From a virus (Duplodnaviria > Heunggongvirae > Uroviricota > Caudoviricetes), in the IMG/VR virus record IMGVR_UViG_2585427793_000011: a stretch of DNA of 32,993 nucleotides; one strand, 5' to 3'. How positions within the stretch are numbered: position 1 is the first letter of the stretch; the number at the start of each line of letters is the position of its first letter. Below the pieces are notes generated by a model. That model searched no databases, was not told the origin of the DNA, and saw only the letters and a list, made by a program, of their open reading frames with translations. The translations under genes were made by a program, and so were the position numbers. Of this stretch, positions 1 to 26,072 are shown piece after piece.

Positions 1-996
1 TTATGGACGCATTATGGACATTCCTGACACCGGGTTAAGAGTCACAGCATCTTGTAAGAAATCCGGTGCAAAGTGTGCGTAGGTCATAGTTTGCTGAATG
101 TTAGAATGACCCAGGATGCGCTGCAATGTGATTATGTTACCTCCATTCATTATAAAATGTGTGGCAAATGTATGCCTCAAAACATGTACTGCTTGTCCGT
201 CAGGTAAATCGGGTTTTACTTCCCTGAGAGCGTTACGCACTTTGTAGTAACTGGCATTAAAAAGCCTGCCTGAATTTTTGGTCTTGATCCGTTTAATCAG
301 GTCCTGCGAAACGGGAATTGTCCTGCGTTTTCCGTTTTTAGTTTTCATAAACGTAACCATCTGGTTAATGATGTGTTCAGCTTTTAAATTAGACACTTCA
401 CTCCAGCGTCCACCAGTAGAAAGGCAGACCAGAGTTGCATTTAATTCATCACCATCAAGCATGGATAACAGCCGCGTAATCTCTTCACTGGACAAAAAAG
501 CCATTTCCGTAACAGCTTCACGTAACCGTTTAATCTCACGGAACGGGTTGTGAGAGTGGTATTCACCGGCGTCAATTAACTTGGTGAACATCCCGCTCAT
601 TATTGCCAGATGTCGATTTACGCTGGCTGGTTTCAGACCATCGTTCATCATTACAACGCGATAATCAGTTATCGTTTTCTTTGTTAGCTGGTCAGCTCTG
701 GACACTCCCATTTCTGCAAATTTGGCGATTATTGTCGTTAAACGCCCCCGTTCAATATCTCCACGCTCATGTGATTTTCCGTGATATATCCACCATCTGC
801 CTAACAACTCTGTAAGAGTTCGGCGGTCGGCTGGTTTCTCCAACCACTCTTTGTTGTGGTAGTTAACCAGTACATGACGTTCGAATGCTTGAGCTTCACC
901 TTTAGTTTTAAATTTCCGCCTGATACGTTTTCCATCTGCACCCTGCGGTCTGACGTCCACTTCATAACGACCATCATCGAGCTTTTTAATAGACAT
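1..996 (-). CDS. int: Tyrosine-type site-specific integrase
   Basis: 331-aa ORF at prophage left end next to the repressor; C-terminal VLRHTFATH...LGH...TMTYAH box typical of tyrosine recombinases. Confidence 0.9.
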   Translation of the reverse strand: MSIKKLDDGRYEVDVRPQGADGKRIRRKFKTKGEAQAFERHVLVNYHNKEWLEKPADRRTLTELLGRWWIYHGKSHERGDIERGRLTTIIAKFAEMGVSRADQLTKKTITDYRVVMMNDGLKPASVNRHLAIMSGMFTKLIDAGEYHSHNPFREIKRLREAVTEMAFLSSEEITRLLSMLDGDELNATLVCLSTGGRWSEVSNLKAEHIINQMVTFMKTKNGKRRTIPVSQDLIKRIKTKNSGRLFNASYYKVRNALREVKPDLPDGQAVHVLRHTFATHFIMNGGNIITLQRILGHSNIQQTMTYAHFAPDFLQDAVTLNPVSGMSIMRP

Positions 997-1089
997 AAAG
1001 CCCTCCGATGACGCTGTTTACTTCTACTACTTGAAAATTAATGCAATTTTCTTTCGTACATTTACTACACACATATGCTGAATAAATCG

Positions 1090-1389
1090 TCAGCCAGTCT
1101 TCTGGTCTGAGTGGTGCAAGGTTGTTGAGTCTTGCCCAATGTGTGCGAGAGCCGGGGCTATTTGTCCAGCTGCTGGATCTGTTTCATCAAACATGAACCA
1201 GTCACGATACTTGCGAAAGCGTGGATGCTTAAACAGCTTCATACCTGCTTCCATAGGCATTTTTGATTTTCCTGATTCATATCCATGATATGTGTAGTAA
1301 TTAATTCCAATTAATTCAGCAAGTTCCTTAGTTTTAAGGCGTTCGGATTCACGGATGAGCTTTAGTTTCTCACTTTGTTCACTTGACAT
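1090..1389 (-). CDS. C: Immunity repressor, P2 C-type
   Basis: 99 aa from ATG at 1389 (ORF track extends to a TTG at 1407); small HTH-like protein divergent from cox; C-terminal GQIAPALAH...QKTG tail matches my recollection of P2 C. Confidence 0.75.
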   Translation of the reverse strand: MSSEQSEKLKLIRESERLKTKELAELIGINYYTYHGYESGKSKMPMEAGMKLFKHPRFRKYRDWFMFDETDPAAGQIAPALAHIGQDSTTLHHSDQKTG

Positions 1390-1482
1390 AATTTTGCTAA
1401 TCTCCAATTATATTGTTACTTGGCAATTTGTGATTCGCTCAAAAAGGCTCTAGATGGCTCCAGTTGGTGAATCGCAAATCTT
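1390..1482. promoter_or_regulatory. C/cox intergenic switch region (expected divergent Pc/Pe promoters and operators)
   Basis: AT-rich intergenic region between divergent repressor and cox ORFs; imperfect direct repeat TGATTCGC / TGAATCGC. Exact operators not resolved. Confidence 0.45.
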
Positions 1483-1854
1483 ATGGAGGATAGCAAAGTG
1501 ACGACAAATGTAGAAATTTCTTGTCCAACTAGCGATGAGGCAAGTTTCGAAAATGAAGCCAAACGTAAAAGCATTCAGATTTCAGAGCGCCCATCTGATT
1601 TGCTGTCGAAAGAAGGTTTTGCTCTTTACATCGGTAAGACACCACGCGCGGTGGCTGAAATGGCTAAAGCAGGAAAGCTGCCAGCCTTCTACATGACAGA
1701 CCCATTAAAACCAAGAGGGAAAGCTGAATTATGGATTAATCGCCGTGAGTGGGACAAGTACGCAGCCCAGCTAGTTGATGAAGCTCCGACAGAATGGCAT
1801 GACTGGAAAAATCGCATTAGTTACAGCAAATCAAGACATGGCCGTGCGGCTTAA
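1483..1854 (+). CDS. cox: Cox-like excisionase / early repressor
   Basis: ORF divergent from C; central IGKTPRAVAEMAKAGKLP..YMTDP segment resembles Cox/excisionase HTH proteins. Start uncertain: a GTG at 1498 preceded by GGAGGA is a plausible alternative. Confidence 0.6.
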   Translation: MEDSKVTTNVEISCPTSDEASFENEAKRKSIQISERPSDLLSKEGFALYIGKTPRAVAEMAKAGKLPAFYMTDPLKPRGKAELWINRREWDKYAAQLVDEAPTEWHDWKNRISYSKSRHGRAA

Positions 1855-1864
1855 GGTGGAAAGG

Positions 1865-2035
1865 ATGAACGAGCCTCGTTGTATTGCTCAGTTATTGCGT
1901 AACGAAAGCCCCAGGGCGATTGACTTCACCATCACCCACGGTAAGGGGCGTAAGGGAATCATTATCCGCACCAAAAAACAGAGTCCGGTAAAAAAGGCTC
2001 TGACCTTTCTGAAAAGCCGGAGGGTCTGGAAATGA
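1865..2035 (+). CDS. Hypothetical protein (P2 orf78 position)
   Basis: 56-aa reading frame from internal ATG at 1865 preceded by AAGGTGG; stop overlaps next gene start (ATGA at 2032). Confidence 0.45.
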   Translation: MNEPRCIAQLLRNESPRAIDFTITHGKGRKGIIIRTKKQSPVKKALTFLKSRRVWK

Positions 2036-2532
2036 CAGTGATGACGCTCAATCTCGTTGAAAAACAGCCAGCAGCTATGCGCCGGATAATTGGTAAGCAT
2101 CTTGCCGTCCCTCGCTGGCAGGAGACATGCGATTATTATAATCAGATGATGGAACGCGAACGGCTAACGGTTTGCTTCCATGCGCAGTTAAAACAGCGTC
2201 ATGCAACGATGCGTTTTGAAGAAATGAATGATGTCGAACGTGAACGACTGGTATGTGCAATTGATGAATTGCGTGGGGCATTCTCAAAACGCCGTCAGGT
2301 TGGCGCAAGTGAGTATGCATATATTAGTTTTTTAACAGTCAGTCAGCGTCGTACTTTATTTATGCATGCCGGATTGACTGAAAAAGAATTCAACCAGCCA
2401 TACTGGCGAATTAATGAAGAATCATGTTACTGGCGTGATGCTTTATTCCGTGCATTACGTGAATTATTCAGCCTGTTTGAGTATGCACCGACAATTCTGA
2501 CGTCGGTAAAACCAGAGCAATATCTGCATTAA
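2032..2532 (+). CDS. B: P2 B-like replication protein (putative helicase loader)
   Basis: 166-aa ORF at the position and with the length of P2 gpB; assignment by synteny and length only. Confidence 0.55.
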   Translation: MTVMTLNLVEKQPAAMRRIIGKHLAVPRWQETCDYYNQMMERERLTVCFHAQLKQRHATMRFEEMNDVERERLVCAIDELRGAFSKRRQVGASEYAYISFLTVSQRRTLFMHAGLTEKEFNQPYWRINEESCYWRDALFRALRELFSLFEYAPTILTSVKPEQYLH

Positions 2533-2595
2533 GTAATTAACCAGAGTTTTTAACGCACTTAATTGTGCGGGGCTTCTTTTTGCCTGGAGAAAGTC

Positions 2596-2820
2596 ATGCA
2601 TACAGTTTCTGAAAATCAGTGCGGTAAATACGCATTACTGCTGCAACAGGCCAGAACCGAAGCACAGGCCGACGCAGCGACGCGCTTTTCTTCTCATCTT
2701 GACGCCATGATTCGCCACATCACAAAGGCGGAGTTATCCCGCGTGGAGATAGTCGAGCTGCTCAGTCAGGAGTCGGAAAAATTTCACAATATCGGATTGT
2801 CTCGCGGGGAGGTGCTTTGA
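2596..2820 (+). CDS. Hypothetical early protein (P2 orf80 position)
   Basis: ORF with ATG at 2596 preceded by GGAGAAA; in the early operon between B and A. Confidence 0.5.
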
Positions 2821-3122
2821 TGTCCTGTTCTCGTTCAGTTGTATTACTGAATAACGCCTTAAAAATCGCCGTTATGAAAAATGGCGATTTATCTCTTATT
2901 CAACTTGGTCTTGATAAAGAAAAACGCGAAATAACTGAGTCTGTTATCGCGATTTATCAGAACGAATTAAATCTCCTGTCTGATGTGGTCAATTTACTTG
3001 TTAAACGCGCTGTATTTCACAAGCAAATCTCCTCCGTGGATGAACTGACGAAATTAACGACAGAAATTGCCAGCTATTGCGCTGATGAATTTAAAAAACT
3101 TAACGACAAAAGGAGCTGGTAA
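2817..3122 (+). CDS. Hypothetical early protein (P2 orf81 position)
   Basis: 101-aa ORF, ATGA overlap with upstream gene, same strand as the early operon. Confidence 0.5.
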
Positions 3123-3346
3123 TGCCGGACAACGTAGATTTTATTCAGGAACAACAGGCTGAATTACTGGAGCGCCAGATTAACGCGGCAAGGGTAAAGC
3201 ATTGCGGTGTTTCTGCGCTGGTTTGCGAAGAGTGTGACGCGCCAATACCTGCTGCCCGTCGTGCGGCTTATCCGTCAGCCACGCGTTGTGTTTCCTGCCA
3301 GTCAGTCTTTGAAGCAAAAAACAAACATTACCGGAGAACGTCATGA
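3122..3346 (+). CDS. TraR/DksA-family C4 zinc-finger protein (P2 orf82 position)
   Basis: 74-aa ORF with C-x2-C-x17-C-x2-C (CEECDAPIP...CVSC) typical of TraR/DksA-like zinc fingers. Confidence 0.7.
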   Translation: MPDNVDFIQEQQAELLERQINAARVKHCGVSALVCEECDAPIPAARRAAYPSATRCVSCQSVFEAKNKHYRRTS

Positions 3347-6052: not shown

Positions 6053-6724
6053 TTAAAGGGCAAACCTTTCTATGGTTCGATACACCTTGTCAAAAATTTG
6101 CTCTGAAAGTGAAATGGACCCATTTGTGTTAATTTCTAATGACTCATAACCGGTAACGTCCTTAACATTAAGTTTAACTTTATCAATTGTAAAATTTGCA
6201 TTTTTGAAAATGTTTCTTATTTCCATAAGTGCGTCACTTGATGACTCAAGTTCCAGTATGCCGGATGTGTGTTTGCTAAACGTTAAGTCTTTTAATTTTG
6301 CCTTGTGCACTTGTATTTTTTCAAAGTGCGGGGTCAGGAAATAAATGAAGTCCTCAATTTTGATGTTGAGATTTGACACATTAAAATCAGAATGTGTTGA
6401 TTTAATTATGTTTGATATGAAGTTCTTAATGCTTCTGGGAGGCGACTCAATGATTAAGATGAAGTTTTTACCTTTTGTTGTGTAAAGCCAAAAGTTAAAT
6501 TGAATATATTTTAGCTGTGTATATTGAGTCTCGTTTCCATATGGATCAACGATTATCTCGTTGACCTCTACTTTCTCGATGTATCGAGATGATATTGCAT
6601 TTTCTTCATATGAGTTGATACTAAATCCCCAGCCTTTATCACTATCAAAAGGAGTGTTAATGATAGACTGATATAAACTATCAAGTCCAGCAGGGAAGTT
6701 GGCAGTAAACCATTTTGTTTTCAT
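6053..6724 (-). CDS. Hypothetical protein, third gene of AT-rich cargo operon
   Basis: 223-aa ORF with AAGGAG Shine-Dalgarno 7 nt upstream of ATG; low GC; no family recognised. Confidence 0.7.
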   Translation of the reverse strand: MKTKWFTANFPAGLDSLYQSIINTPFDSDKGWGFSINSYEENAISSRYIEKVEVNEIIVDPYGNETQYTQLKYIQFNFWLYTTKGKNFILIIESPPRSIKNFISNIIKSTHSDFNVSNLNIKIEDFIYFLTPHFEKIQVHKAKLKDLTFSKHTSGILELESSSDALMEIRNIFKNANFTIDKVKLNVKDVTGYESLEINTNGSISLSEQIFDKVYRTIERFAL

Positions 6725-6735
6725 AACAACTCCTT

Positions 6736-7848
6736 TTATTTATCAGTAACAACCTCAATTGTGTTGGAGGCGATAATACTGTTTGAAATTTCGCGAGCGG
6801 TTTTTTCAAGTGCTAATAATAGCAGTTTTTCCTTCTCTTTATCTACATTTTGACGATTTGCATATTCGTTTATATTTTTGTACTTATAAACACCGCGAAC
6901 GATATACGAGAATAACTTGCAATTATCTGGGTCGACAAATTGAGCCTCGAATTCATATTTGTCCGAGTCTTTATAAGTGTCAACAACAGAACTCCAAATG
7001 ATTTTGGTAATATAAAATCCTTTTCCTAACAACTCCTTAAACTCGAGAGAGTCAAGAACGCTGCGCCCTTTTAGTGAAGCTTTGGAGATATGATATCCTG
7101 TGTCAATAATTGTATCGTCATCATCAGAATCATCTTCATTTTCGTTAGACTTATTTGACTCAAGAATTGGATGCGTAACGTATACATCCGATACGTCAAT
7201 GCATTTGTAGTTAGGTATGCTTGAGATTAGTTGCTCAAAAAATTTGCTTCTTTCCGCTGGTGATTTAACAGTTTCGAGCGAAATCTCATCAAGACTGGCT
7301 GGATCCTCATTGTTGTCTTCTTTGATCTTCTCCACGAGGCGCTCGTTGAATTCCCTTGCTTTAGCATTTTGAGGGAAACGGGTGATAAATTCACCGCTTT
7401 CATTCATTTCAACTTGTATTTTGGCTTCACGTGATGAGGATTGGCGAAACTCGCTCATTTTGAAATCTAGTTTCACATATTTTATTGATACTTCAAAACC
7501 ATTCTCGGTGTAATTTATATTAGTTATATCGCCTTCTTTTTGAAGATCTTCACAAATAGATTTAATAGTATTTTCCATACTATTTTTATCTATATTTGTA
7601 TTAATAATGTTAATTGATACTTTTTCTCTCCGCCCAACAGAACCGAGTATGTTTGAAAGAAATTCAAAATCAGAATAGCCATGATAGTATCTGGAAAAAT
7701 CCAAAGCCAATGTTTTTCGTTTAGTCTCTTTGGATATAATCATTCCTCTTTTAAAAAAGAGACTTTTCATATCTTCATGAGTGACTTTAGTTTGATTCAA
7801 TGCGTCAAACATTGCCTTATCATTTACACTATATAATCCAATTTTCAT
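6736..7848 (-). CDS. Hypothetical acidic protein, second gene of AT-rich cargo operon
   Basis: 370 aa from ATG at 7848, which forms an ATGA overlap with the upstream gene stop (ORF track extends to TTG 7863); GGGAG upstream; contains NENEDDSDDDD acidic tract. Confidence 0.7.
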   Translation of the reverse strand: MKIGLYSVNDKAMFDALNQTKVTHEDMKSLFFKRGMIISKETKRKTLALDFSRYYHGYSDFEFLSNILGSVGRREKVSINIINTNIDKNSMENTIKSICEDLQKEGDITNINYTENGFEVSIKYVKLDFKMSEFRQSSSREAKIQVEMNESGEFITRFPQNAKAREFNERLVEKIKEDNNEDPASLDEISLETVKSPAERSKFFEQLISSIPNYKCIDVSDVYVTHPILESNKSNENEDDSDDDDTIIDTGYHISKASLKGRSVLDSLEFKELLGKGFYITKIIWSSVVDTYKDSDKYEFEAQFVDPDNCKLFSYIVRGVYKYKNINEYANRQNVDKEKEKLLLLALEKTAREISNSIIASNTIEVVTDK

Positions 7849-8909
7849 GCCTGTCGCTCCCAACCAATCTCTACCGAACTAAAACGAGGCTTTGTAAATT
7901 CTACCTGTTGAAAATCAATAGCATCTATTATCGTTTTTTTATGTTCATCGAAACCCCATTCTTGACAATAACTATCCTTTGCACGCATAAAAATACTGCG
8001 AACATCTTTATGTATGTTAGGGTTAACTATTCTAATTCTTATATTTTCATTGCCATCCAGTAATTGATATTTAGATAGTGTGTCCAGAATGTAAATAAAC
8101 TCTAGCTCGTTTTTTCCTTCGCCATTGTAATAAATAATGTAACCATGTTTAAATGTGGTTTCCCATTGTGATGTTTCTTCATTGCAATGTCTGACGTCAT
8201 TATGTTTTATAATAAGGAATGGGCCTGTCAATAATTCTACAGTTGCTGGAAGTTCTTCGGGCGAACCGCTTACTTTATGTAGTGAAAGGTCTGGGTAAAA
8301 GAATTGATATTTTTTACCGAGTGGAAACTCTCTTTTGTGGCTTAGTTGTGATAAATCGCAGATTATTGACTGCAGGTAGTTTATAGTTCTTGGTTCAATA
8401 ATGTGTATTTTTTGACCGGCCCTTACCGGTATATTGTCAAGATTGATACCTCTTTTCTTCTTATCAGTTTCAGTATTGTGAGACTGATAGAATACATCAT
8501 AAAAAGATTGGTCAAAGTCTCCGTCATGGTTGTATACAAAGAGCATGCCTCTGACTTCTGACGCACCACTTTTATAAGAATAACGCTCCTTCCATTCTTT
8601 ACAACCTTGAGCACAGTCAATAGAATTAGCCAGCGATACTAAAGCATTGCGCATTTTAGTTGCTGTAATTGAGCCTTTAATATAGCTTTTTAAATCAGTA
8701 TTTAAAAAAATGGTTCTATTCAAATAGGGATCTTTATAAGAAAATACAACATCAGTTGGATGTGTTCCGGCTAGTGTTTTATGTTGATCTTTTTTCATGC
8801 ATGGAAAGTTTTCATTGGTTGGACCAACGAGTTCCCACTTAAACCATTTGAATAGGTCTGAAGATATTTTTTCTGCCATTGCTGAAATATTTTGAGTTTC
8901 ACCTGACAT
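7845..8909 (-). CDS. Hypothetical protein, first gene of AT-rich cargo operon
   Basis: 354-aa ORF, AGGT 9 nt upstream of ATG, AT-rich promoter-like region upstream; no family recognised with confidence. Confidence 0.7.
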   Translation of the reverse strand: MSGETQNISAMAEKISSDLFKWFKWELVGPTNENFPCMKKDQHKTLAGTHPTDVVFSYKDPYLNRTIFLNTDLKSYIKGSITATKMRNALVSLANSIDCAQGCKEWKERYSYKSGASEVRGMLFVYNHDGDFDQSFYDVFYQSHNTETDKKKRGINLDNIPVRAGQKIHIIEPRTINYLQSIICDLSQLSHKREFPLGKKYQFFYPDLSLHKVSGSPEELPATVELLTGPFLIIKHNDVRHCNEETSQWETTFKHGYIIYYNGEGKNELEFIYILDTLSKYQLLDGNENIRIRIVNPNIHKDVRSIFMRAKDSYCQEWGFDEHKKTIIDAIDFQQVEFTKPRFSSVEIGWERQA

Positions 8910-12315: not shown

Positions 12316-13170
12316 ATGGCAAAAAAAGTCTCAAAATTCTTTCGTATCGGCGTTGAGGGTGACACCTGTGACGGGCGTGTCATCAGTGCGCAGGATATTC
12401 AGGAAATGGCCGAAACCTTTGACCCGCGAGTCTATGGTTGCCGCATTAACCTGGAACATCTGCGTGGCATCCTGCCTGACGGTATTTTTAAGCGTTATGG
12501 CGATGTGGCCGAACTGAAGGCCGAAAAGATTGACGATGATTCGGCGCTGAAAGGCAAATGGGCGCTGTTTGCGAAAATCACCCCGACCGATGACCTTATC
12601 GCGATGAACAAGGCCGCGCAGAAGGTCTATACCTCAATGGAAATTCAGCCGAACTTTGCCAATACCGGCAAATGTTATCTGGTGGGGCTGGCCGTCACCG
12701 ATGACCCGGCAAGCCTCGGCACGGAATACCTGGAATTCTGCCGCACGGCAAAACACAACCCTCTGAACCGCTTCAAATTAAGCCCTGAAAACCTGATTTC
12801 AGTGGCAACGCCTGTTGAGCTGGAATTTGAAGACCTGCCTGAAACCGTGTTCACAGCCCTGACCGAAAAGGTGAAATCCATTTTTGGCCGCAAACAGGCC
12901 AGCGATGACGCCCGTCTGAATGACGTGCATGAAGCGGTGACCGCTGTTGCTGAACATGTGCAGGAAAAACTGAGCGCCACTGAGCAGCGCCTCGCTGAGA
13001 TGGAAGCTGCCTTTTCCGCTCTTAAGCAGGAGGTGACTGACAGGGCGGATGAAACCAGCCAGGCATTCACCCGCCTGAAAAACAGTCTCGACCACACCGA
13101 AAGTCTGACCCAGCAGCGCCGCAGCAAGGCCACCGGTGGTGGCGGTGACGCCCTGATGACGAACTGCTGA
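12316..13170 (+). CDS. O: Capsid scaffolding protein
   Basis: 284 aa from ATG at 12316 (MAKKVSKFFRIG...), P2 gpO length; first gene of the head operon. Confidence 0.9.
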   Translation: MAKKVSKFFRIGVEGDTCDGRVISAQDIQEMAETFDPRVYGCRINLEHLRGILPDGIFKRYGDVAELKAEKIDDDSALKGKWALFAKITPTDDLIAMNKAAQKVYTSMEIQPNFANTGKCYLVGLAVTDDPASLGTEYLEFCRTAKHNPLNRFKLSPENLISVATPVELEFEDLPETVFTALTEKVKSIFGRKQASDDARLNDVHEAVTAVAEHVQEKLSATEQRLAEMEAAFSALKQEVTDRADETSQAFTRLKNSLDHTESLTQQRRSKATGGGGDALMTNC

Positions 13171-13228
13171 CCGGCGTCAGTCAGTCCGGGAAAACCTTCA
13201 CGATTAACCCTTAATTTCAGGAAAAACT

Positions 13229-14302
13229 ATGCGCCAGGAAACCCGCTTTAAATTTAATGCTTACCTGTCCCGTGTTGCCGAACTGAACGGCATCGACGCC
13301 GGTGATGTGTCGAAAAAATTCACCGTTGAACCGTCGGTCACCCAGACCCTGATGAACACCATGCAGGAGTCCTCTGATTTTCTGACCCGCATCAACATTG
13401 TGCCGGTCAGCGAAATGAAAGGGGAAAAAATTGGTATTGGTGTCACCGGCTCCATCGCCAGCACCACCGACACCGCCGGTGGCACCGAGCGTCAGCCGAA
13501 GGACTTCTCGAAGCTGGCGTCAAACAAGTACGAATGCGACCAGATTAACTTCGATTTTTATATCCGCTACAAAACGCTTGACCTGTGGGCGCGTTATCAG
13601 GATTTCCAGCTCCGTGTCCGTAACGCCATTATCAAACGCCAGTCCCTTGATTTAATCATGGCCGGTTTTAACGGCGTGAGGCGTGCCGAAACCTCTGACC
13701 GCAGCAGCAATCCGATGCTGCAGGATGTGGCGGTCGGCTGGCTGCAGAAATACCGCAATGAAGCCCCGGCGCGCGTGATGAGCAAGGTCACTGACGAGGA
13801 AGGTCACACGACCTCTGAGGTCATCCGCGTGGGTAAGGGCGGTGATTATGCCAGCCTCGATGCACTGGTGATGGATGCGACCAACAACCTGATTGAGCCG
13901 TGGTATCAGGAAGACCCTGACCTTGTGGTGATTGTGGGGCGTCAGCTACTGGCGGACAAGTATTTCCCCATCGTCAACAAGGAGCAGGACAACAGCGAAA
14001 TGCTGGCCGCTGACGTTATCATCAGCCAGAAACGCATCGGCAACCTGCCGGCGGTACGCGTCCCGTACTTCCCGGCGGATGCGATGCTCATCACGAAGCT
14101 GGAAAACCTGTCCATCTACTACATGGATGACAGCCATCGCCGCGTGATTGTGGAAAACCCGAAACTCGACCGCGTGGAGAACTACGAGTCAATGAACATT
14201 GATTACGTGGTGGAAGACTATGCCGCCGGTTGTCTGGTGGAAAAAATTAAGGTCGGTGACTTCTCCACACCGGCTAAGGCGACCGCAGAGCCGGGAGCGT
14301 AA
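13229..14302 (+). CDS. N: Major capsid protein
   Basis: 357 aa, P2 gpN length and position. Confidence 0.9.
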   Translation: MRQETRFKFNAYLSRVAELNGIDAGDVSKKFTVEPSVTQTLMNTMQESSDFLTRINIVPVSEMKGEKIGIGVTGSIASTTDTAGGTERQPKDFSKLASNKYECDQINFDFYIRYKTLDLWARYQDFQLRVRNAIIKRQSLDLIMAGFNGVRRAETSDRSSNPMLQDVAVGWLQKYRNEAPARVMSKVTDEEGHTTSEVIRVGKGGDYASLDALVMDATNNLIEPWYQEDPDLVVIVGRQLLADKYFPIVNKEQDNSEMLAADVIISQKRIGNLPAVRVPYFPADAMLITKLENLSIYYMDDSHRRVIVENPKLDRVENYESMNIDYVVEDYAAGCLVEKIKVGDFSTPAKATAEPGA

Positions 14303-14305
14303 CCG

Positions 14306-15049
14306 ATGACGAGTCCCGCACAGCGCCACATGATGCGGGTCTCGGCAGCGATGACCGCGCAGCGGGAAGCCGCCCCGCTGCGACATGCAACTGTCTATGA
14401 GCAGATGCTGGTTAAGCTCGCCGCAGACCAGCGCACACTGAAAGCGATTTATTCAAAAGAGCTTAAGGCCGCGAAAAAGCGCGAACTGCTGCCGTTCTGG
14501 TTGCCGTGGGTGAACGGCGTGCTGGAGCAGGGCAAAGGTGCACAGGATGACATTCTGATGACGGTCATGCTGTGGCGTCTGGATACCGGCGATATTGCCG
14601 GTGCGCTGGAGATTGCCCGTTACGCCCTGAAGTACGGTCTGACCATGCCGGGTAAACCCCGCCGCACCCCGCCGTACATGTTCACCGAGGAGGTGGCGCT
14701 CGCGGCCATGCGCGCTCACGCTGCCGGTGAGTCTGTGGATCCCCGCCTGCTGACGGACACACTTGAACTGACTGCCACGGCAGACATGCCTGATGAAGTG
14801 CGCGCAAAGCTGCACAAAATCACCGGTCTGTTTCTGCGTGACGCTGGTGATGCCGCAGGGGCGCTGGCGCACCTGCAACGTGCGACACAGCTCGACTGTC
14901 AGGCAGGCGTCAAAAAAGAGATTGAACGACTGGAGCGGGAGCTGAAACCGAAGCCGGAGCCGCAGCCAAAAGCGGCCACCCGTACCCCGCGTAAGACCCG
15001 GAGCGTGACACCGGCAAAACGTGGACGCCCGAAAAAGAAAGCCAGTTAA
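14306..15049 (+). CDS. M: Terminase small subunit
   Basis: 247 aa, P2 gpM length and position; basic lysine/arginine-rich C-terminus. Confidence 0.85.
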   Translation: MTSPAQRHMMRVSAAMTAQREAAPLRHATVYEQMLVKLAADQRTLKAIYSKELKAAKKRELLPFWLPWVNGVLEQGKGAQDDILMTVMLWRLDTGDIAGALEIARYALKYGLTMPGKPRRTPPYMFTEEVALAAMRAHAAGESVDPRLLTDTLELTATADMPDEVRAKLHKITGLFLRDAGDAAGALAHLQRATQLDCQAGVKKEIERLERELKPKPEPQPKAATRTPRKTRSVTPAKRGRPKKKAS

Positions 15050-18587: not shown

Positions 18588-19373
18588 TTATGAGTGATTT
18601 TTATTTGATGCTTTGTATTCTACAACCTTCTTATTGGCGTAAAGGAATTTTGTATATGACAGGAATATAACCAGACCTGAAATGAAATAGATGAGGGATA
18701 TTATTAATAATGCTTTTTTTTGGCTGTTATTATCTTTAATCTCCTGACTTAACCATTCGGAGTCCTCCTCGTTTAGCTGTAAGAGCTTATTGCAGGCGAT
18801 CTCAGGAAGTGTGTCTTTTATAAATACGTTTCGTAGCCTCTTGCAATCGGCAAGGCTATAAGTTTTATTGAATTCAACTGTTTTATTGTTGAAGGATAAA
18901 AGAACTTTGTCACTATAAACATAGTACATCATATTTTTATATGGTATGCCTATGGCATCTCTTACTATAGCGGATTGTTTGTTGTGTATATAACATGCGA
19001 GGAGAATGTAAAAAATACTGGCCAGAATTACAATTATTGTTTTAATTATGTGTGGTGGTTTTGTTATGTCACCCCAGATGCGAGTAAGGAAAAAATACGA
19101 TGTTTTTAGTTTTCCATCAATCAGTCCCTGCTGTATCATTCTCACATTTTCAATGCCTGATACATTGATTCCGTTAATTATTTTAAATAGTTGAATGTCG
19201 CGCCACTCGCGGTCAAGTCTTTTTAATTTTTTGTCTGAATATCCAAAATTGAAATAATGTGCAATAAGCCTCATAAGGTTACTTTTACCAAAGCTAAAAA
19301 ATGCTAATACTGCAAAGCTACAAAGGAAAAAAACGATTAGCCCCCACACATTAGTCACATTATAGCTGACCAT
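18588..19373 (-). CDS. Hypothetical membrane protein (P2 orf30 position cargo gene)
   Basis: 261-aa AT-rich ORF, AAGGAG upstream of ATG; three hydrophobic segments (N-terminal, central, C-terminal) consistent with TM helices. Confidence 0.7.
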   Translation of the reverse strand: MVSYNVTNVWGLIVFFLCSFAVLAFFSFGKSNLMRLIAHYFNFGYSDKKLKRLDREWRDIQLFKIINGINVSGIENVRMIQQGLIDGKLKTSYFFLTRIWGDITKPPHIIKTIIVILASIFYILLACYIHNKQSAIVRDAIGIPYKNMMYYVYSDKVLLSFNNKTVEFNKTYSLADCKRLRNVFIKDTLPEIACNKLLQLNEEDSEWLSQEIKDNNSQKKALLIISLIYFISGLVIFLSYTKFLYANKKVVEYKASNKNHS

Positions 19374-21349: not shown

Positions 21350-21872
21350 TTCGCGACTGCTGCCGACCGGCTCATCACCGCTTGAGGTCGCCGCCGCAAA
21401 AGCCTGTGCGGAAATTGAAAAAACGCCGGTCAGTATTCGTGAGCTGTGGAACCCGGACACCTGTCCGGCAAATCTGCTGCCGTGGCTGGCGTGGGCGTTT
21501 TCGGTCGACAGGTGGGATGAAAAGTGGCCGGAAGCGACAAAACGCGCCGTTATCCGCGATGCCTATTTCATCCACTGTCATAAAGGCACTATAGGTGCAA
21601 TCCGGCGTGTGGTGGAGCCGCTCGGCTATCTCATCAACGTGACGGAGTGGTGGGAAACCAGTGACCCGCCGGGCACCTTCCGGCTTGATATTGGTGTACT
21701 GGAAAGTGGCATCACAGAGGCAATGTATCAGGAAATGGAACGGCTGATTGCTGATGCCAAACCTGCAAGCCGCCACCTTATTGGCCTGAACATTACCCGG
21801 GACATTCCCGGCTACCTGTTCGCCGGTGGTGTGGCTTATGACGGCGATGTAATTACGGTTTACCCCGGATAA
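21342..21872 (+). CDS. I: Baseplate protein I
   Basis: 176 aa, P2 gpI length and position. Confidence 0.9.
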   Translation: MSDSRLLPTGSSPLEVAAAKACAEIEKTPVSIRELWNPDTCPANLLPWLAWAFSVDRWDEKWPEATKRAVIRDAYFIHCHKGTIGAIRRVVEPLGYLINVTEWWETSDPPGTFRLDIGVLESGITEAMYQEMERLIADAKPASRHLIGLNITRDIPGYLFAGGVAYDGDVITVYPG

Positions 21873-21882
21873 GTGAGGAATA

Positions 21883-24207
21883 ATGAGCACAAAATTCAGA
21901 ACCGTTATCACCACTGCCGGTGCAGCAAAGCTGGCAGCGGCAACCGCGCCGGGAGGGCGGAAGGTCAACATTACCACGATGGCCGTCGGGGATGGCGGTG
22001 GTAAATTGCCTGTCCCGGATGCCGGACAGACCGGGCTTATCCATGAAGTCTGGCGACATGCGCTGAACAAAATCAGCCAGGACAAACGAAACAGTAATTA
22101 TATTATCGCAGAGCTGGTTATTCCGCCGGAGGTGGGCGGTTTCTGGATGCGTGAGCTTGGCCTGTACGATGATGCGGGAACATTAATTGCCGTGGCGAAC
22201 ATGGCCGAAAGTTATAAGCCAGCTCTTGCCGAAGGCTCAGGGCGTTCGCAGACCTGTCGCATGGTCATCATCGTCAGCAGTGTGACCTCAGTGGAGCTGA
22301 CCATTGACACCACAACGGTGATGGCGACGCAGGATTACGTTGATGACAAAATTGCAGAACATGAACAGTCACGACGTCACCCGGACGCCTCGCTGACCGC
22401 AAAAGGTTTTACTCAGTTAAGCAGTGCGACCAACAGCACGTCTGAAACACTGGCTGCAACGCCGAAAGCGGTTAAGGCCGCATATGACCTGGCTAACGGG
22501 AAATATACCGCACAGGACGCTACCACAGAGCGAAAAGGTCTTGTCCAGCTCAGTAGTGCCACCAACAGCACGTCTGAAACGCTTGCCGCAACACCAAAAG
22601 CGGTAAAAGCAGCATATGACCTTGCTAACGGGAAATATACCGCACAGGACGCTACCACAGCGCGAAAAGGTCTTGTCCAGCTCAGTAGTGCCACCAACAG
22701 CACGTCTGAAACGCTTGCCGCAACACCAAAAGCGGTAAAAGCAGCATATGACCTTGCTAACGGGAAATATACCGCACAGGACGCTACCACAGCGCGAAAA
22801 GGTCTTGTCCAGCTCAGTAGTGCCACCAACAGCACGTCTGAAACGCTTGCCGCAACACCAAAAGCGGTAAAAGCAGCATATGACCTTGCTAACGGGAAAT
22901 ATACCGCACAGGACGCTACCACAGCGCGAAAAGGTCTTGTCCAGCTCAGTAGTGCCACCAACAGCACGTCTGAAACGCTTGCCGCAACACCAAAAGCGGT
23001 AAAAGCAGCATATGACCTTGCTAACGGGAAATATACCGCACAGGACGCCACCACAGCGCGAAAAGGTCTTGTCCAGCTCAGTAGCGTCACCAACAGCGAT
23101 TCTGAAACGCTTGCGGCAACGCCAAAGGCGGTAAAGGCCGCGTATGACCTTGCTAACGGGAAATACACTGCACAGGACGCCACCACGGCGCGGAAAGGTC
23201 TTGTTCAGCTCAGTAGCGCCGCCAACAGTGATTCTGAAACGCTGGCCGCAACACCAAAAGCAGTGAAGTCTGCCTATGACAATGCTGAAAAACGTCTTCA
23301 GAAAGATCAGAACGGTGCGGATATTCCGGGAAAGGATACCTTCACGAAAAATATCGGTGCCTGTCGTGCTTATAGCGGCGCTTTGAGCACTGAAGCCGGA
23401 AACTGGACAACCGCTCAGTTTATTGAATGGCTGGATTCCCGTGGTGCATTTAATCATCCGTACTGGATGTGCAAATGTTCATGGTCATACGGCAATAATA
23501 AAATTATTACCGATACTGGCTGTGGAACTATTCATCTTGCAGGTTGCGTTATTGAGGTTATGGGTAATAAAGGTGCCATGACCATCCGTGTAACAACACC
23601 AAGCACTTCTACCGGAGGCGGCACCACTAACGCTCAATTCACTTATATTAATCATGGTGATGCTTATGCCCCCGGCTGGCGACGAGACTACAACACGAAA
23701 AACCAGCAGCCTGCATTTGCTTTAGGGCAAACAGGAAGCAGGGTTGCAAATGATAAAGCTGTTGGCTGGAACTGGAATAGCGGTGTTTATGATGCAGATA
23801 TCAGCGGTGCATCGACATTAATCCTCCACTTCAATATGAATGCGGGGAGTTGCCCTGCCGTACAGTTCCGTGTGAATTATAAGAACGGCGGTATTTTTTA
23901 TCGTTCAGCACGTGATGGTTATGGATTTGAGGCTAACTGGTCAGAGTTTTACACCACAACCCGCAAACCCTCTGCGGGAGATGTTGGTGCATATACCAAA
24001 GCTGAATCGGATTCTCGCTATGTACGAGATATTCGCCTGGGCACACGTGTTGTTCAGACTATGCAAAAAGGTGTGATGTATGAAAAATCAGGCCATGTAA
24101 TTACAGGGCTTGGTATTGTCGGTGAAGTCGATGGTGATGACCCCGCAGTATTCAGACCAATACAAAAATACATTAATGGCACATGGTATAACGTCGCACA
24201 GGTGTAA
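21883..24207 (+). CDS. H: Tail fibre protein with expanded internal repeat array
   Basis: 774-aa ORF after I and before the fibre assembly chaperone; contains about 6.7 tandem 44-aa repeats (KGLVQLSSATNSTSETLAATPKAVKAAYDLANGKYTAQDATTAR). Confidence 0.9.
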   Translation: MSTKFRTVITTAGAAKLAAATAPGGRKVNITTMAVGDGGGKLPVPDAGQTGLIHEVWRHALNKISQDKRNSNYIIAELVIPPEVGGFWMRELGLYDDAGTLIAVANMAESYKPALAEGSGRSQTCRMVIIVSSVTSVELTIDTTTVMATQDYVDDKIAEHEQSRRHPDASLTAKGFTQLSSATNSTSETLAATPKAVKAAYDLANGKYTAQDATTERKGLVQLSSATNSTSETLAATPKAVKAAYDLANGKYTAQDATTARKGLVQLSSATNSTSETLAATPKAVKAAYDLANGKYTAQDATTARKGLVQLSSATNSTSETLAATPKAVKAAYDLANGKYTAQDATTARKGLVQLSSATNSTSETLAATPKAVKAAYDLANGKYTAQDATTARKGLVQLSSVTNSDSETLAATPKAVKAAYDLANGKYTAQDATTARKGLVQLSSAANSDSETLAATPKAVKSAYDNAEKRLQKDQNGADIPGKDTFTKNIGACRAYSGALSTEAGNWTTAQFIEWLDSRGAFNHPYWMCKCSWSYGNNKIITDTGCGTIHLAGCVIEVMGNKGAMTIRVTTPSTSTGGGTTNAQFTYINHGDAYAPGWRRDYNTKNQQPAFALGQTGSRVANDKAVGWNWNSGVYDADISGASTLILHFNMNAGSCPAVQFRVNYKNGGIFYRSARDGYGFEANWSEFYTTTRKPSAGDVGAYTKAESDSRYVRDIRLGTRVVQTMQKGVMYEKSGHVITGLGIVGEVDGDDPAVFRPIQKYINGTWYNVAQV
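22402..23298 (+). repeat. In-frame 132-bp tandem repeat array within H (about 6.7 copies, several nucleotide-identical)
   Basis: Repeat units begin at 22402, 22534, 22666, 22798, 22930, 23062, 23194; copies at 22534, 22666 and 22798 are nucleotide-identical and the 22930 copy differs by one base. Confidence 0.9.
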
Positions 24208-24210
24208 TTT

Positions 24211-24738
24211 ATGCAGCATTTAAAAAATATTACTGCGGGTAATCCCAAAACTGTTGCCCAATATCAACTGACAAAAAATTTTGATGTTGTCTGGTTATGG
24301 TCTGAAGACGGAAAAAACTGGTATGAGGAAGTAAGTAATTTTCAGGAAGACACGATAAAGATTGTTTACGACGAGAATAATATAATTGTCGGCATCACCA
24401 GAGATGCTTCAACGCTTAACCCTGAAGGTTTTAGCGTTGTCGAGGTTCCTGATATTACCGCCAACCGACGTGCTGATGACTCAGGTAAATGGATGTTTAA
24501 GGATGGTGCCGTGATTAAGCGGATTTATACGGCAGACGAACAGCATCAACTGGCAGAATCACAAAAGGCAACTTTACTTTCCGAAGCTGAATCCGTGATT
24601 TTGCTGCTGGAGCGCGCTGTCAGGCTGAATATGGCAACAGAGGAGGAACGCAGCCGACTGGAAGCATGGGAACGCTACAGTGTTCTGGTCAGTCGTGTGG
24701 ATCCTGCAAATCCTGAATGGCCGGAAATGCCGCAGTAA
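24211..24738 (+). CDS. G: Tail fibre assembly chaperone
   Basis: 175 aa, P2 gpG length; immediately downstream of H. Confidence 0.85.
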
Positions 24739-24989: not shown

Positions 24990-26072
24990 CTAATTATTTT
25001 GGCAAGTGCTGTCAGCGAGCAGAGAAAAATCACTATTTTCAATTGCGTTCACAAGTTTTGCAATATCATGATTTTTTTCATAAAAGATATATAACGCCGC
25101 ATACAGATTCATTTCGGGTTCAATCTTTGGAAATGACACGCTGATCATACGTTCATTTTTGATATATGCATCATCACCCTTATAGTACATTCCAACATAA
25201 TTGTCCCATCGTTCAATAAGACTCATCTCGAACAAATCATCAAGGTCTTTTGAAAAAGATTGATAGTTTGTATCGTCAATCATTAGTGGCCCGAAAAGTT
25301 GCTTTTCAGGAAACTCGATTTTCGTGCTTGTACTCTTCGGTATATTTATCTCACTGATAATTTTGCTTAAAAGATTTCTAGCAGATAAAGTGCATTGACG
25401 CAGTCTATTTTTAAAAAGTTCTAGAAATTCATATACGATCTGCTCACCTTCGTCAACATCATCAAACCATTCATTAGTATGAATTAACGCGTTGAAAAGA
25501 CTCAAGTCAAAGGGGATCGGCTTGTTTTTTGATACACAATACCCCTGATTGAAAGCAACGTCCCCAGGAGAGAAATAATCCGAGTATTCTTTCCGGGCAA
25601 GGGTCAAAAAATCACGCTGAAATTCTAAAGTTTGTCCCATTACCTTTTCGACTAGGTCGTACAATGTGAAATATTTGCACTGAAAATCGTCAGGGTGTTC
25701 ACGTACGTTATCAGGTAGGCGTTCAGCCGTGAGGACGAAAAACCAAATCTCGTCAAACTTACCCTTTAACTTCTCATTGTTTCGAAGTTTGTCTAATGTT
25801 TTCTGATACTTAACCTTTCTTGCAGTGGCAGTCATTTGCAAACCTAAGCGCTTTCCCGGTTGCACATAGTCGAGACCAGGGTAGTTTTGGGATATCCTAT
25901 TCATATCCTCAAACTGCTCTCCCCAGGCATGATTGATTAGAGGCAATAGCGAACTCTCTTGGGCTGTAGAAAGATCATTTAAATTGCTGCTGGTTTGCAT
26001 CTTGATTTGAGTAGCAAGTTTCGTTGCAAAGCTAGTTAATTCTTCCCTGTTTTTCATTTGCTCTGGTTTCAA
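24990..26072 (-). CDS. Hypothetical protein (Z/fun-locus cargo gene, candidate defence/abortive-infection protein)
   Basis: 355-360-aa AT-rich ORF counter-oriented to the flanking tail genes; start either TTG at 26072 (GGAG upstream) or ATG at 26057. Confidence 0.7.
   Translation of the reverse strand: MKPEQMKNREELTSFATKLATQIKMQTSSNLNDLSTAQESSLLPLINHAWGEQFEDMNRISQNYPGLDYVQPGKRLGLQMTATARKVKYQKTLDKLRNNEKLKGKFDEIWFFVLTAERLPDNVREHPDDFQCKYFTLYDLVEKVMGQTLEFQRDFLTLARKEYSDYFSPGDVAFNQGYCVSKNKPIPFDLSLFNALIHTNEWFDDVDEGEQIVYEFLELFKNRLRQCTLSARNLLSKIISEINIPKSTSTKIEFPEKQLFGPLMIDDTNYQSFSKDLDDLFEMSLIERWDNYVGMYYKGDDAYIKNERMISVSFPKIEPEMNLYAALYIFYEKNHDIAKLVNAIENSDFSLLADSTCQNN

Follow-up and report, generated by a model that had tools for sequence, protein, structure and literature searches.

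The tail fibers of phages P2 and Mu both contain the repeat family PF03406 (Phage_fiber_2, "phage tail fibre repeat" in Pfam). The P2 fiber protein, gpH (NP_046775, 669 amino acids (aa); 12734..14743 in NC_001895), has only two unit positions. The Mu fibers, S and S' (PDB 5yvq, 9ki1, and 8ju3), have a single unit (residues 117-159), which is followed by the receptor-binding region, and Mu alternates between its fibers with the invertible G segment (PMC11915804). Here we describe the tail fiber gene H of a P2-type prophage, from a viral sequence of 32,993 nucleotides (nt) in IMG/VR (IMGVR_UViG_2585427793_000011; Caudoviricetes), which we will call the window. This gene has seven in-register units of 132 bp (44 aa) within its reading frame (22402..23325). 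We think it very likely that the array is a genuine and very recent in-frame amplification of PF03406 units in the proximal shaft of a P2-type fiber.

The fibers of P2 and Mu each share a different part of the H in the window. P2 gpH shares the N-terminal domain (with 14 differences over 519 nt) and the first unit, but past the AATPKAVK core of P2's last unit, the C-terminal part is unrelated (with 573 differences over the last 900 nt). The Mu fibers have another N-terminal domain, and their receptor-binding region is homologous to aa 466-772 of H. The best DNA match is the H gene from Escherichia phage vB_EcoM-12474II-V (Peduovirus pv12474III; QDJ98452.1, 642 aa), whose genome is 98.1% identical to about 80% of the first 25 kb of the window. 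This phage has the same types of units (U1, U2, U3, and U4'), the same fiber assembly protein, and the same neighboring gene for a SMEK-domain protein. However, its H has four units instead of seven, with no hybrid unit and no Ala>Glu change in unit 1 (both described below).

PF03406 is also found in fibers that are less similar to H. Lambda Stf and the collagen-like fibers from prophages of enterohaemorrhagic Escherichia coli (EHEC), which are siphovirus side fibers, share the unit (as 'Pf2'; PMC3368898). These fibers vary by whole repeat periods of rod modules (Ghosh et al. 2012, PMC3368898), but the reported length variation concerns their collagen and coiled-coil segments and not PF03406. 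Other fibers from E. coli (P0121 and P0123/P0136) have tandem PF03406 units with near-identical peptides. By our reading, P0121 has about 9 units, so larger PF03406 arrays than this one are known. These fibers are built from super-repeats of 100 aa (44+56 aa); those that we examined either lack a P2-type start or have another N-terminus, their C-terminal ends differ, and many of their records are fragments. Overall, the feature in the window belongs to a known repeat family, in a known type of fiber, and its 774-aa product was already public as an exact match (P0003: KDU32220.1, KDU55348.1, KEL27528.1, and WP_072002980.1). What is new is the allele, and it is an ordinary kind of variation for a tail fiber.

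Seven units in gene H

The window contains a complete P2-type prophage, from the integrase-side end to ogr, and its head, lysis, tail, and baseplate genes are in the usual P2 order. (E. coli is the host of the P2-type prophage.) The open reading frame (ORF) at 21883..24207 (+ strand, as are the other parts of H) encodes 774 aa. It lies downstream of homologs of P2 V, W, J, and I and is followed by the gene for an assembly protein, so we identified it as H. The gene order, V-W-J-I-H-G, matches that of P2.

Tandem Repeats Finder reported a single array (22423..23261; period 132, 6.4 copies, 95% matches, score 1426), which is the sole large repeat of the window. H matches PF03406 with 450.8 bits (E = 1.4e-138) over 7 separate stretches, while the gathering cut-off for this family is 22 bits. 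The units start at 22402, 22534, 22666, 22798, 22930, 23062, and 23194. The original prediction, which was made from the sequence and a list of its ORFs, had described a near-identical in-frame array of 132-bp units in H with three consecutive copies that are identical in nucleotides. We found the same, with the identical copies being units 2-4, and the 44-aa unit that it quoted is exact. It had placed the array at 22402-23298. The similarity between units does end near 23280-23298, but the register runs to 23325. As for the length of P2 H, which it used for comparison, 669 aa is correct (NC_001895). However, P2 H is the wrong comparator: the unit has only two positions there, and the C-terminal part is both different and longer. 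The 642-aa allele of vB_EcoM-12474II is the one to compare.

The seven units differ in age. Unit 1 (22402..22533) is an old copy that is 1 nt from unit 1 of vB_EcoM-12474II and 18 nt from unit 2. It carries a C>A at 22529 that is specific to the lineage and changes Ala to Glu (giving 'TTER'), and we write it as U1*. Units 2-4 (22534..22929) are the recent expansion and have 0 differences over 132 nt. Each of them has the body of unit 2 with a base from unit 1, a T at unit position 120 (22653, 22785, and 22917), and we write this hybrid unit as H in the formulas for alleles. Unit 5 (22930..23061) is the ancestral unit 2, with 0 differences from unit 2 of vB_EcoM-12474II, and it differs from units 2-4 by one synonymous nucleotide (C for T at 23049). 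Unit 6 (23062..23193) is the ancestral unit 3, with 0 differences from unit 3 of that phage. It is 15-16 nt from unit 2, with a synonymous divergence (dS) of 0.46-0.52 and a nonsynonymous divergence (dN) of 0.036. Unit 7 (23194..23325, with its core at 23194..23280) is a partial unit with 0 differences from unit 4 of vB_EcoM-12474II. It keeps the unit sequence for about the first 29 codons and then runs into the C-terminal domain, and it forms the joint to the receptor-binding part. The homology to Mu S (residues 117-159) starts at unit 7.

Over 519 bp (22530..23048), the array is perfectly periodic at a lag of 132. This cannot be chance. The stretch is a substrate for slippage as well as a problem for assemblers, and it should stay unstable.

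The older units have diverged from each other mostly at synonymous sites (dS 0.46-1.04, dN 0.036-0.091, dN/dS ~0.07-0.1), so the peptide of the unit is a selected structural module under constraint. Among the new units, dS is just 0-0.03. By this comparison, the old copies are ancient relative to the expansion.

On either side of the array, H has domains of different affinities. The N-terminal domain (aa 1-151; 21883..22335) matches PF12571 (Phage_tail_fib, tail-collar fiber N-terminal; 2.5e-58), as expected for a P2-type (Peduovirus) tail fiber. In Mu, the N-terminus of the fiber docks to a wedge protein, and the resting fibers lie along the sheath (PMC11915804). By analogy with this N-terminus of Mu gp49 (PMC11915804), the N-terminal domain of H probably attaches the fiber to the baseplate. 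The C-terminal region (23278..24198) is a receptor-binding domain of the Mu S'/P1 S type: aa 466-772 align to residues 177-486 of the Mu S/S' chimera (8ju3; 1.2e-149). Next is the gene for a tail fiber assembly protein of the P2 G / Mu U type (24211..24738, + strand, 175 aa; PF02413 Caudo_TAP, 2.1e-33), and related records have the same annotation for this product. Together, the matches to PF12571, to PF03406 (seven times), and to Mu S/S' show that the fiber is modular: the attachment domain is of the P2 type, the shaft consists of PF03406 units, and the receptor-binding part, which comes with its own chaperone, is of the Mu S' type.

The point where P2 H diverges from the H in the window is right after an AATPKAVK core. 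In an engineered lambda-P2 Stf chimera, the joint is at residue 251 of P2 H, which is just past the AATPKAVK core of P2's second unit. The unit thus doubles as a joint where different distal or receptor-binding parts attach. That the unit is an attachment joint was noted already in the early literature on the tail fibers of P2 and Mu. Separately, we observed a receptor-binding part of the Mu S' (G-minus) type, with mosaic relatives in the P1-like phage RCS47 and in several Yersinia and Peduovirus phages. We saw no G segment or other invertible segment beside H in the window; the SMEK gene is directly after the assembly gene.

Several other features that overlap the array were considered and rejected. 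Two long antisense ORFs (22413..23186 and 22417..23457, - strand; 257 and 346 aa) have periodic translations and are not genes. They exist because the repeat unit happens to have no stop codons in those frames. Weak matches of the repeats to the Pfam families TPR_20, ARM, and TX13 were below threshold or had no stretch that passed on its own. A scan of 21800..24300 against Rfam gave only a chance-level match to a snoRNA, far under the threshold.

Origin of the array and copy number in other lineages

The H of vB_EcoM-12474II is 1929 bp instead of 2325 bp, and the gap of 396 bp corresponds to three units. There are no differences in the first 519 nt or in the last 900 nt, and the four units of vB_EcoM-12474II are units 1 (1 nt apart), 5, 6, and 7 of the window. 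In other words, the H in the window is the H of vB_EcoM-12474II with three extra copies and one point change.

Intermediate alleles were found as well. The hybrid unit is absent from four-unit alleles and present once in five-unit alleles (L091-L096). One of these, U1-H-U2-U3-U4', is known from protein P0017 (13 contigs, including one of 5.09 Mb) and from loci L093-L096. A second five-unit allele (P0004) adds the C>A of the window's unit 1. It was found in L091 (GCA_015284165.1), whose flanks differ from the window by 4+2 nt over 10,519+9,671 nt, and in L092 (GCA_016856785.1), whose flanks differ by 0+3 nt over 3,993+9,671 nt. From these alleles, the order is four units, then five with the hybrid, then five with the Ala>Glu change, and then seven.

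With the support of these comparisons, we propose that the array arose in three steps. First, in a four-unit ancestor (U1-U2-U3-U4'), an in-register unequal exchange or a replication slip between unit 2 and unit 1, with the crossover between unit positions 91 and 119, would have created the hybrid unit and the allele U1-H-U2-U3-U4'. Such a product is predicted if unit 2 of one copy pairs out of register with unit 1 of another, and it is the allele found in P0017 and L093-L096. Second, the C>A (Ala>Glu) change would have arisen in U1 of this five-unit allele. Third, misalignment among the near-identical H and U2 copies would have added two more hybrid units, which would give U1*-H-H-H-U2-U3-U4'.

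Other lineages show the same kind of event. A six-unit allele (L007; P0001, 730 aa) is an independent expansion with a U3/U2 hybrid and two identical copies of U3. In prophages of E. coli O145, a two-unit allele (RM9872) and a four-unit allele (95-3192) have identical flanks (2520 nt upstream and 2881 nt downstream). The two-unit allele has an in-frame deletion of 264 bp with a U2/U4' hybrid at the junction, and it is present in 6 complete-genome records. Thus, unequal exchange or slippage is indicated by gains and losses of whole units, by hybrids at the junctions (U2/U1, U3/U2, and U2/U4'), and by flanks that are identical or nearly so. Changes in the number of units recur in both directions.

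These results bear on most of what the original prediction had proposed about the history of the array. A recent expansion is supported by the H of vB_EcoM-12474II, which differs only by the lack of three units and by 1 nt in unit 1, and by five-unit intermediates in near-identical prophages. Slipped or unequal recombination is supported by added units that are hybrids, and by the hybrid junctions in the independent six-unit allele and in the 264-bp deletion allele. The comparison of H across related prophages, which it had suggested as a check, yielded the series of 4, 5, 5 with Ala>Glu, and 7 units. It had also predicted ongoing variation in copy number, and this holds as variation between strains, with alleles of 1 to 7 units.

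How unusual are seven units? We compared the flanks of the array, without the array, to complete E. coli genomes, and we used the span between the flanks within each record as the length of the array. (A BLAST search with just the array was dropped because two overlapping pieces of a four-unit subject can cover the entire seven-unit query, so coverage was inflated.) Among the 28 complete-genome records listed that have the window's receptor-binding type, 21 have four units, 6 have two units, and 1 has five units. For the sister receptor-binding type, 25 of the 30 records listed have four units and 5 have three. Altogether, 46 of the 58 records listed have four units. We also examined 78 genes from IMG/VR with nearly identical N-terminal domains. 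Most of these have four units (47 genes), and the others have one (4 genes), two (10), three (9), or five (8); none has more than five. In three alleles from IMG/VR, two neighboring units differ by at most 4 nt. Overall, four units is the usual state, and the seven-unit allele is rare, derived, and the largest found for this fiber type. There was no clean trade-off between the number of units and the length of the C-terminal part.

The array is not a phase-variation switch like the contingency loci with tandem repeats that turn genes on and off. The 132-bp unit is 44 codons, a multiple of three, and the 2-, 4-, 5-, 6-, and 7-unit alleles are all in frame with the same termini.

Two other searches were less informative. 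Searching for proteins with the array alone returned mainly other fiber families and fragments and did not rank H alleles by copy number. Scanning IMG/VR for a 78-nt pattern from the hybrid unit was not diagnostic, as other lineages carry the same bases across the junction of units 1 and 2; no contig in this exact-pattern scan had several matches.

The database entries with PF03406 units have problems of their own. Many of them (P0138, P0151, P0167, P0168, and others) are fragments from contigs of 1-2 kb that end inside arrays. Several such fragments are mis-named as 'short-chain fatty acid transporter', which looks like a propagated annotation error. In L088 (IMGVR_UViG_2563366972_000002), the H frame stops after 265 aa, just where the third unit begins; a frameshift, a truncation, or an error of assembly within the array could each account for this.

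Reliability of the count and consequences for the fiber

The hazard for assembly that was predicted for this array is real. If k is below 125 nt, then the seven-unit gene has no k-mers that are absent from the five-unit gene, and counting the hybrid units requires a read or an insert across 22529..23049 (521 bp). Therefore, short-read assemblies cannot fix the number of units from the sequence alone. This raises the main alternative to our reading, which is that the repeat is real but the number of identical hybrid units is not three: the assembly may have over-expanded one or two units, or collapsed a larger number. The perfect periodicity of 519 bp exceeds the length of short reads, every carrier of the seven-unit allele that we found is a draft assembly, and many tail-fiber proteins in the databases break inside such arrays on contigs of 1-2 kb. 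But such breaks, or collapse, are what assemblers usually do at repeats; they do not usually add copies that are in register. Also, the identical 774-aa product is represented by three GenBank accessions and by three contigs of over 200 kb, and arrays with 2, 3, 4, and 5 units are each attested independently in complete genomes. The seven-unit gene is present in L003 as well, with exactly the same array, and yet L003 and the window are not identical elsewhere (9 differences in 21,111 nt outside of H). A seven-unit array in at least two non-identical assemblies counts against a pure artifact. (The five-unit alleles from draft genomes could themselves be collapsed.) We consider an erroneous count to be unlikely, and a different count would not alter that the expansion exists and is recent.

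If the count is correct, then each chain of the trimeric fiber would gain 132 residues between the domain that binds the baseplate and the Mu S'-type domain that binds the receptor. Given their position between the anchor and the receptor-binding tip, the units probably form the proximal shaft. The shaft would then be longer, while the reading frame, the attachment domain, and the receptor specificity would probably be unchanged. The rise per residue in other phage fibers is roughly 0.05-0.15 nm. As a rough estimate, the three units might add 7-20 nm.

Several points weigh against a recent amplification in the proximal shaft as the explanation, or limit what it can say. First, the exact count rests on draft assemblies whose read length is not stated, and none of the 58 complete E. 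coli genome records listed has 6 or 7 units. Second, a six-unit intermediate was not found in the window's lineage, and unequal crossover and replication slippage are indistinguishable from the sequence, as both give the same products. Third, a monomer of full-length H from AlphaFold2 (with an alignment of 21 sequences) has a mean predicted local distance difference test (pLDDT) score of just 40, with 26-47 for the repeats, which is too poor for searching by fold, and the confidence is usable only in the N-terminal domain. (In that low-confidence region, the model hints that each unit has a recurring short strand, a strand, and an 11-residue helix.) When we searched the sequences in the PDB with the protein and with a profile of 12 unit sequences, only Mu S and the S/S' chimera had the unit; among the solved structures found in this way, Mu S alone may cover it, and the cryo-electron microscopy study of Mu modelled only the N-terminus of the fiber (PMC11915804). 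Finally, a deposited phage genome exists only for the near-identical relative with four units, and infectious particles with the long fiber are putative.

A recent in-frame amplification could still be of no benefit to the phage. The expansion might be a neutral or mildly harmful product of slippage that is tolerated in a prophage that is not being selected for infectivity, and the long fiber may assemble poorly. Residence as a prophage does relax selection on virion genes, and the seven-unit allele is rare and an outlier in the distribution. However, the window has full-length ORFs in the usual P2 gene order, the closest four-unit relatives are viable phages with genomes that were deposited as complete, and the expansion is in frame with units whose peptide is under purifying selection. 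We view this explanation as quite unlikely.

At the other extreme, the array might be a fast-mutating ruler for adaptive tuning of length, with longer shafts being selected to reach the lipopolysaccharide (LPS) core through thicker O-antigen or capsule. Gains and losses that recur independently in several lineages, a unit peptide that is strongly conserved while copy number varies, and a reading frame that is kept in all of the changes would fit, but we think this very unlikely, as four units is the commonest state in nearly all of the C-terminal length classes sampled (which points to a preferred length rather than to tuning), the seven-unit allele is confined to one narrow lineage among those found, and a prophage meets selection on its fiber only upon induction. 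If it were true, then the 2-, 4-, 5-, and 7-unit alleles, whose genes are otherwise identical, would already form an isogenic set for testing whether the length of the fiber by itself alters adsorption. Similarly, we offer only as speculation, and do not expect, that PF03406 arrays are in-frame contingency loci for host range, with frequent changes by whole units that are separate from the swapping of receptor domains.

Neighboring loci and significance

Besides the array, the prophage has several loci that may be of interest. Between the fiber assembly gene and the sheath gene FI, in the known cargo slot where P2 has Z/fun, the window encodes a SMEK-domain protein of 360 aa (24990..26072, - strand; PF21941, 1.6e-19). 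Its aa 5-116 also match the PADLOC model PDLC02399 ('Aga_REase-PNTD1-PNTD2', 4e-18). This gene is present in vB_EcoM-12474II and in the O145 prophages as well, while L007 carries a different gene there (197 aa).

Between the replication gene A and the portal gene Q, which is the cargo position of tin/old in P2, there are three adjacent ORFs of 223, 375, and 354 aa (6053..8909, - strand). These match the PADLOC models Hp3 (6e-8), Hp2 (3.7e-37), and Hp1 (1.7e-63) and have no match in Pfam, and they are a candidate three-gene anti-phage system. Another ORF (18588..19373; 261 aa) is on the opposite strand between the tail genes S and V, at the position of the non-essential orf30 of P2. It has no match in Pfam or PADLOC, and prophages L093-L096, which are similar in other respects, lack it.

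Our literature searches, which did not include the 1992 paper on P2 tail fibers or the 2016 review of P2, found no description of copy-number polymorphism of the unit in P2 H. Nor did the searches that we made find a description of a preserved stepwise series with hybrid junctions, or of a quantified limit for assembly, or a paper that names the sequencing technology behind the source assemblies.

The seven-unit allele does not change the current understanding of phage biology, and its interest is modest. One practical implication is a warning about short-read assemblies: because k-mers below 125 nt do not reveal the number of units, the lengths of fibers in draft genomes and in viral catalogs are unreliable. 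For the biology of these fibers, the array is a clean natural case of stepwise tandem amplification in a structural gene of a phage, with the intermediates preserved in public genomes. The allelic series, which is otherwise identical, could be used to test how the length of the shaft affects adsorption or host range, and it might guide the engineering of fibers for P2, P4, and pyocins. More broadly, the conserved unit also serves as a joint for different receptor-binding parts, which makes it relevant to understanding, and to exploiting, the mosaicism of tail fibers.

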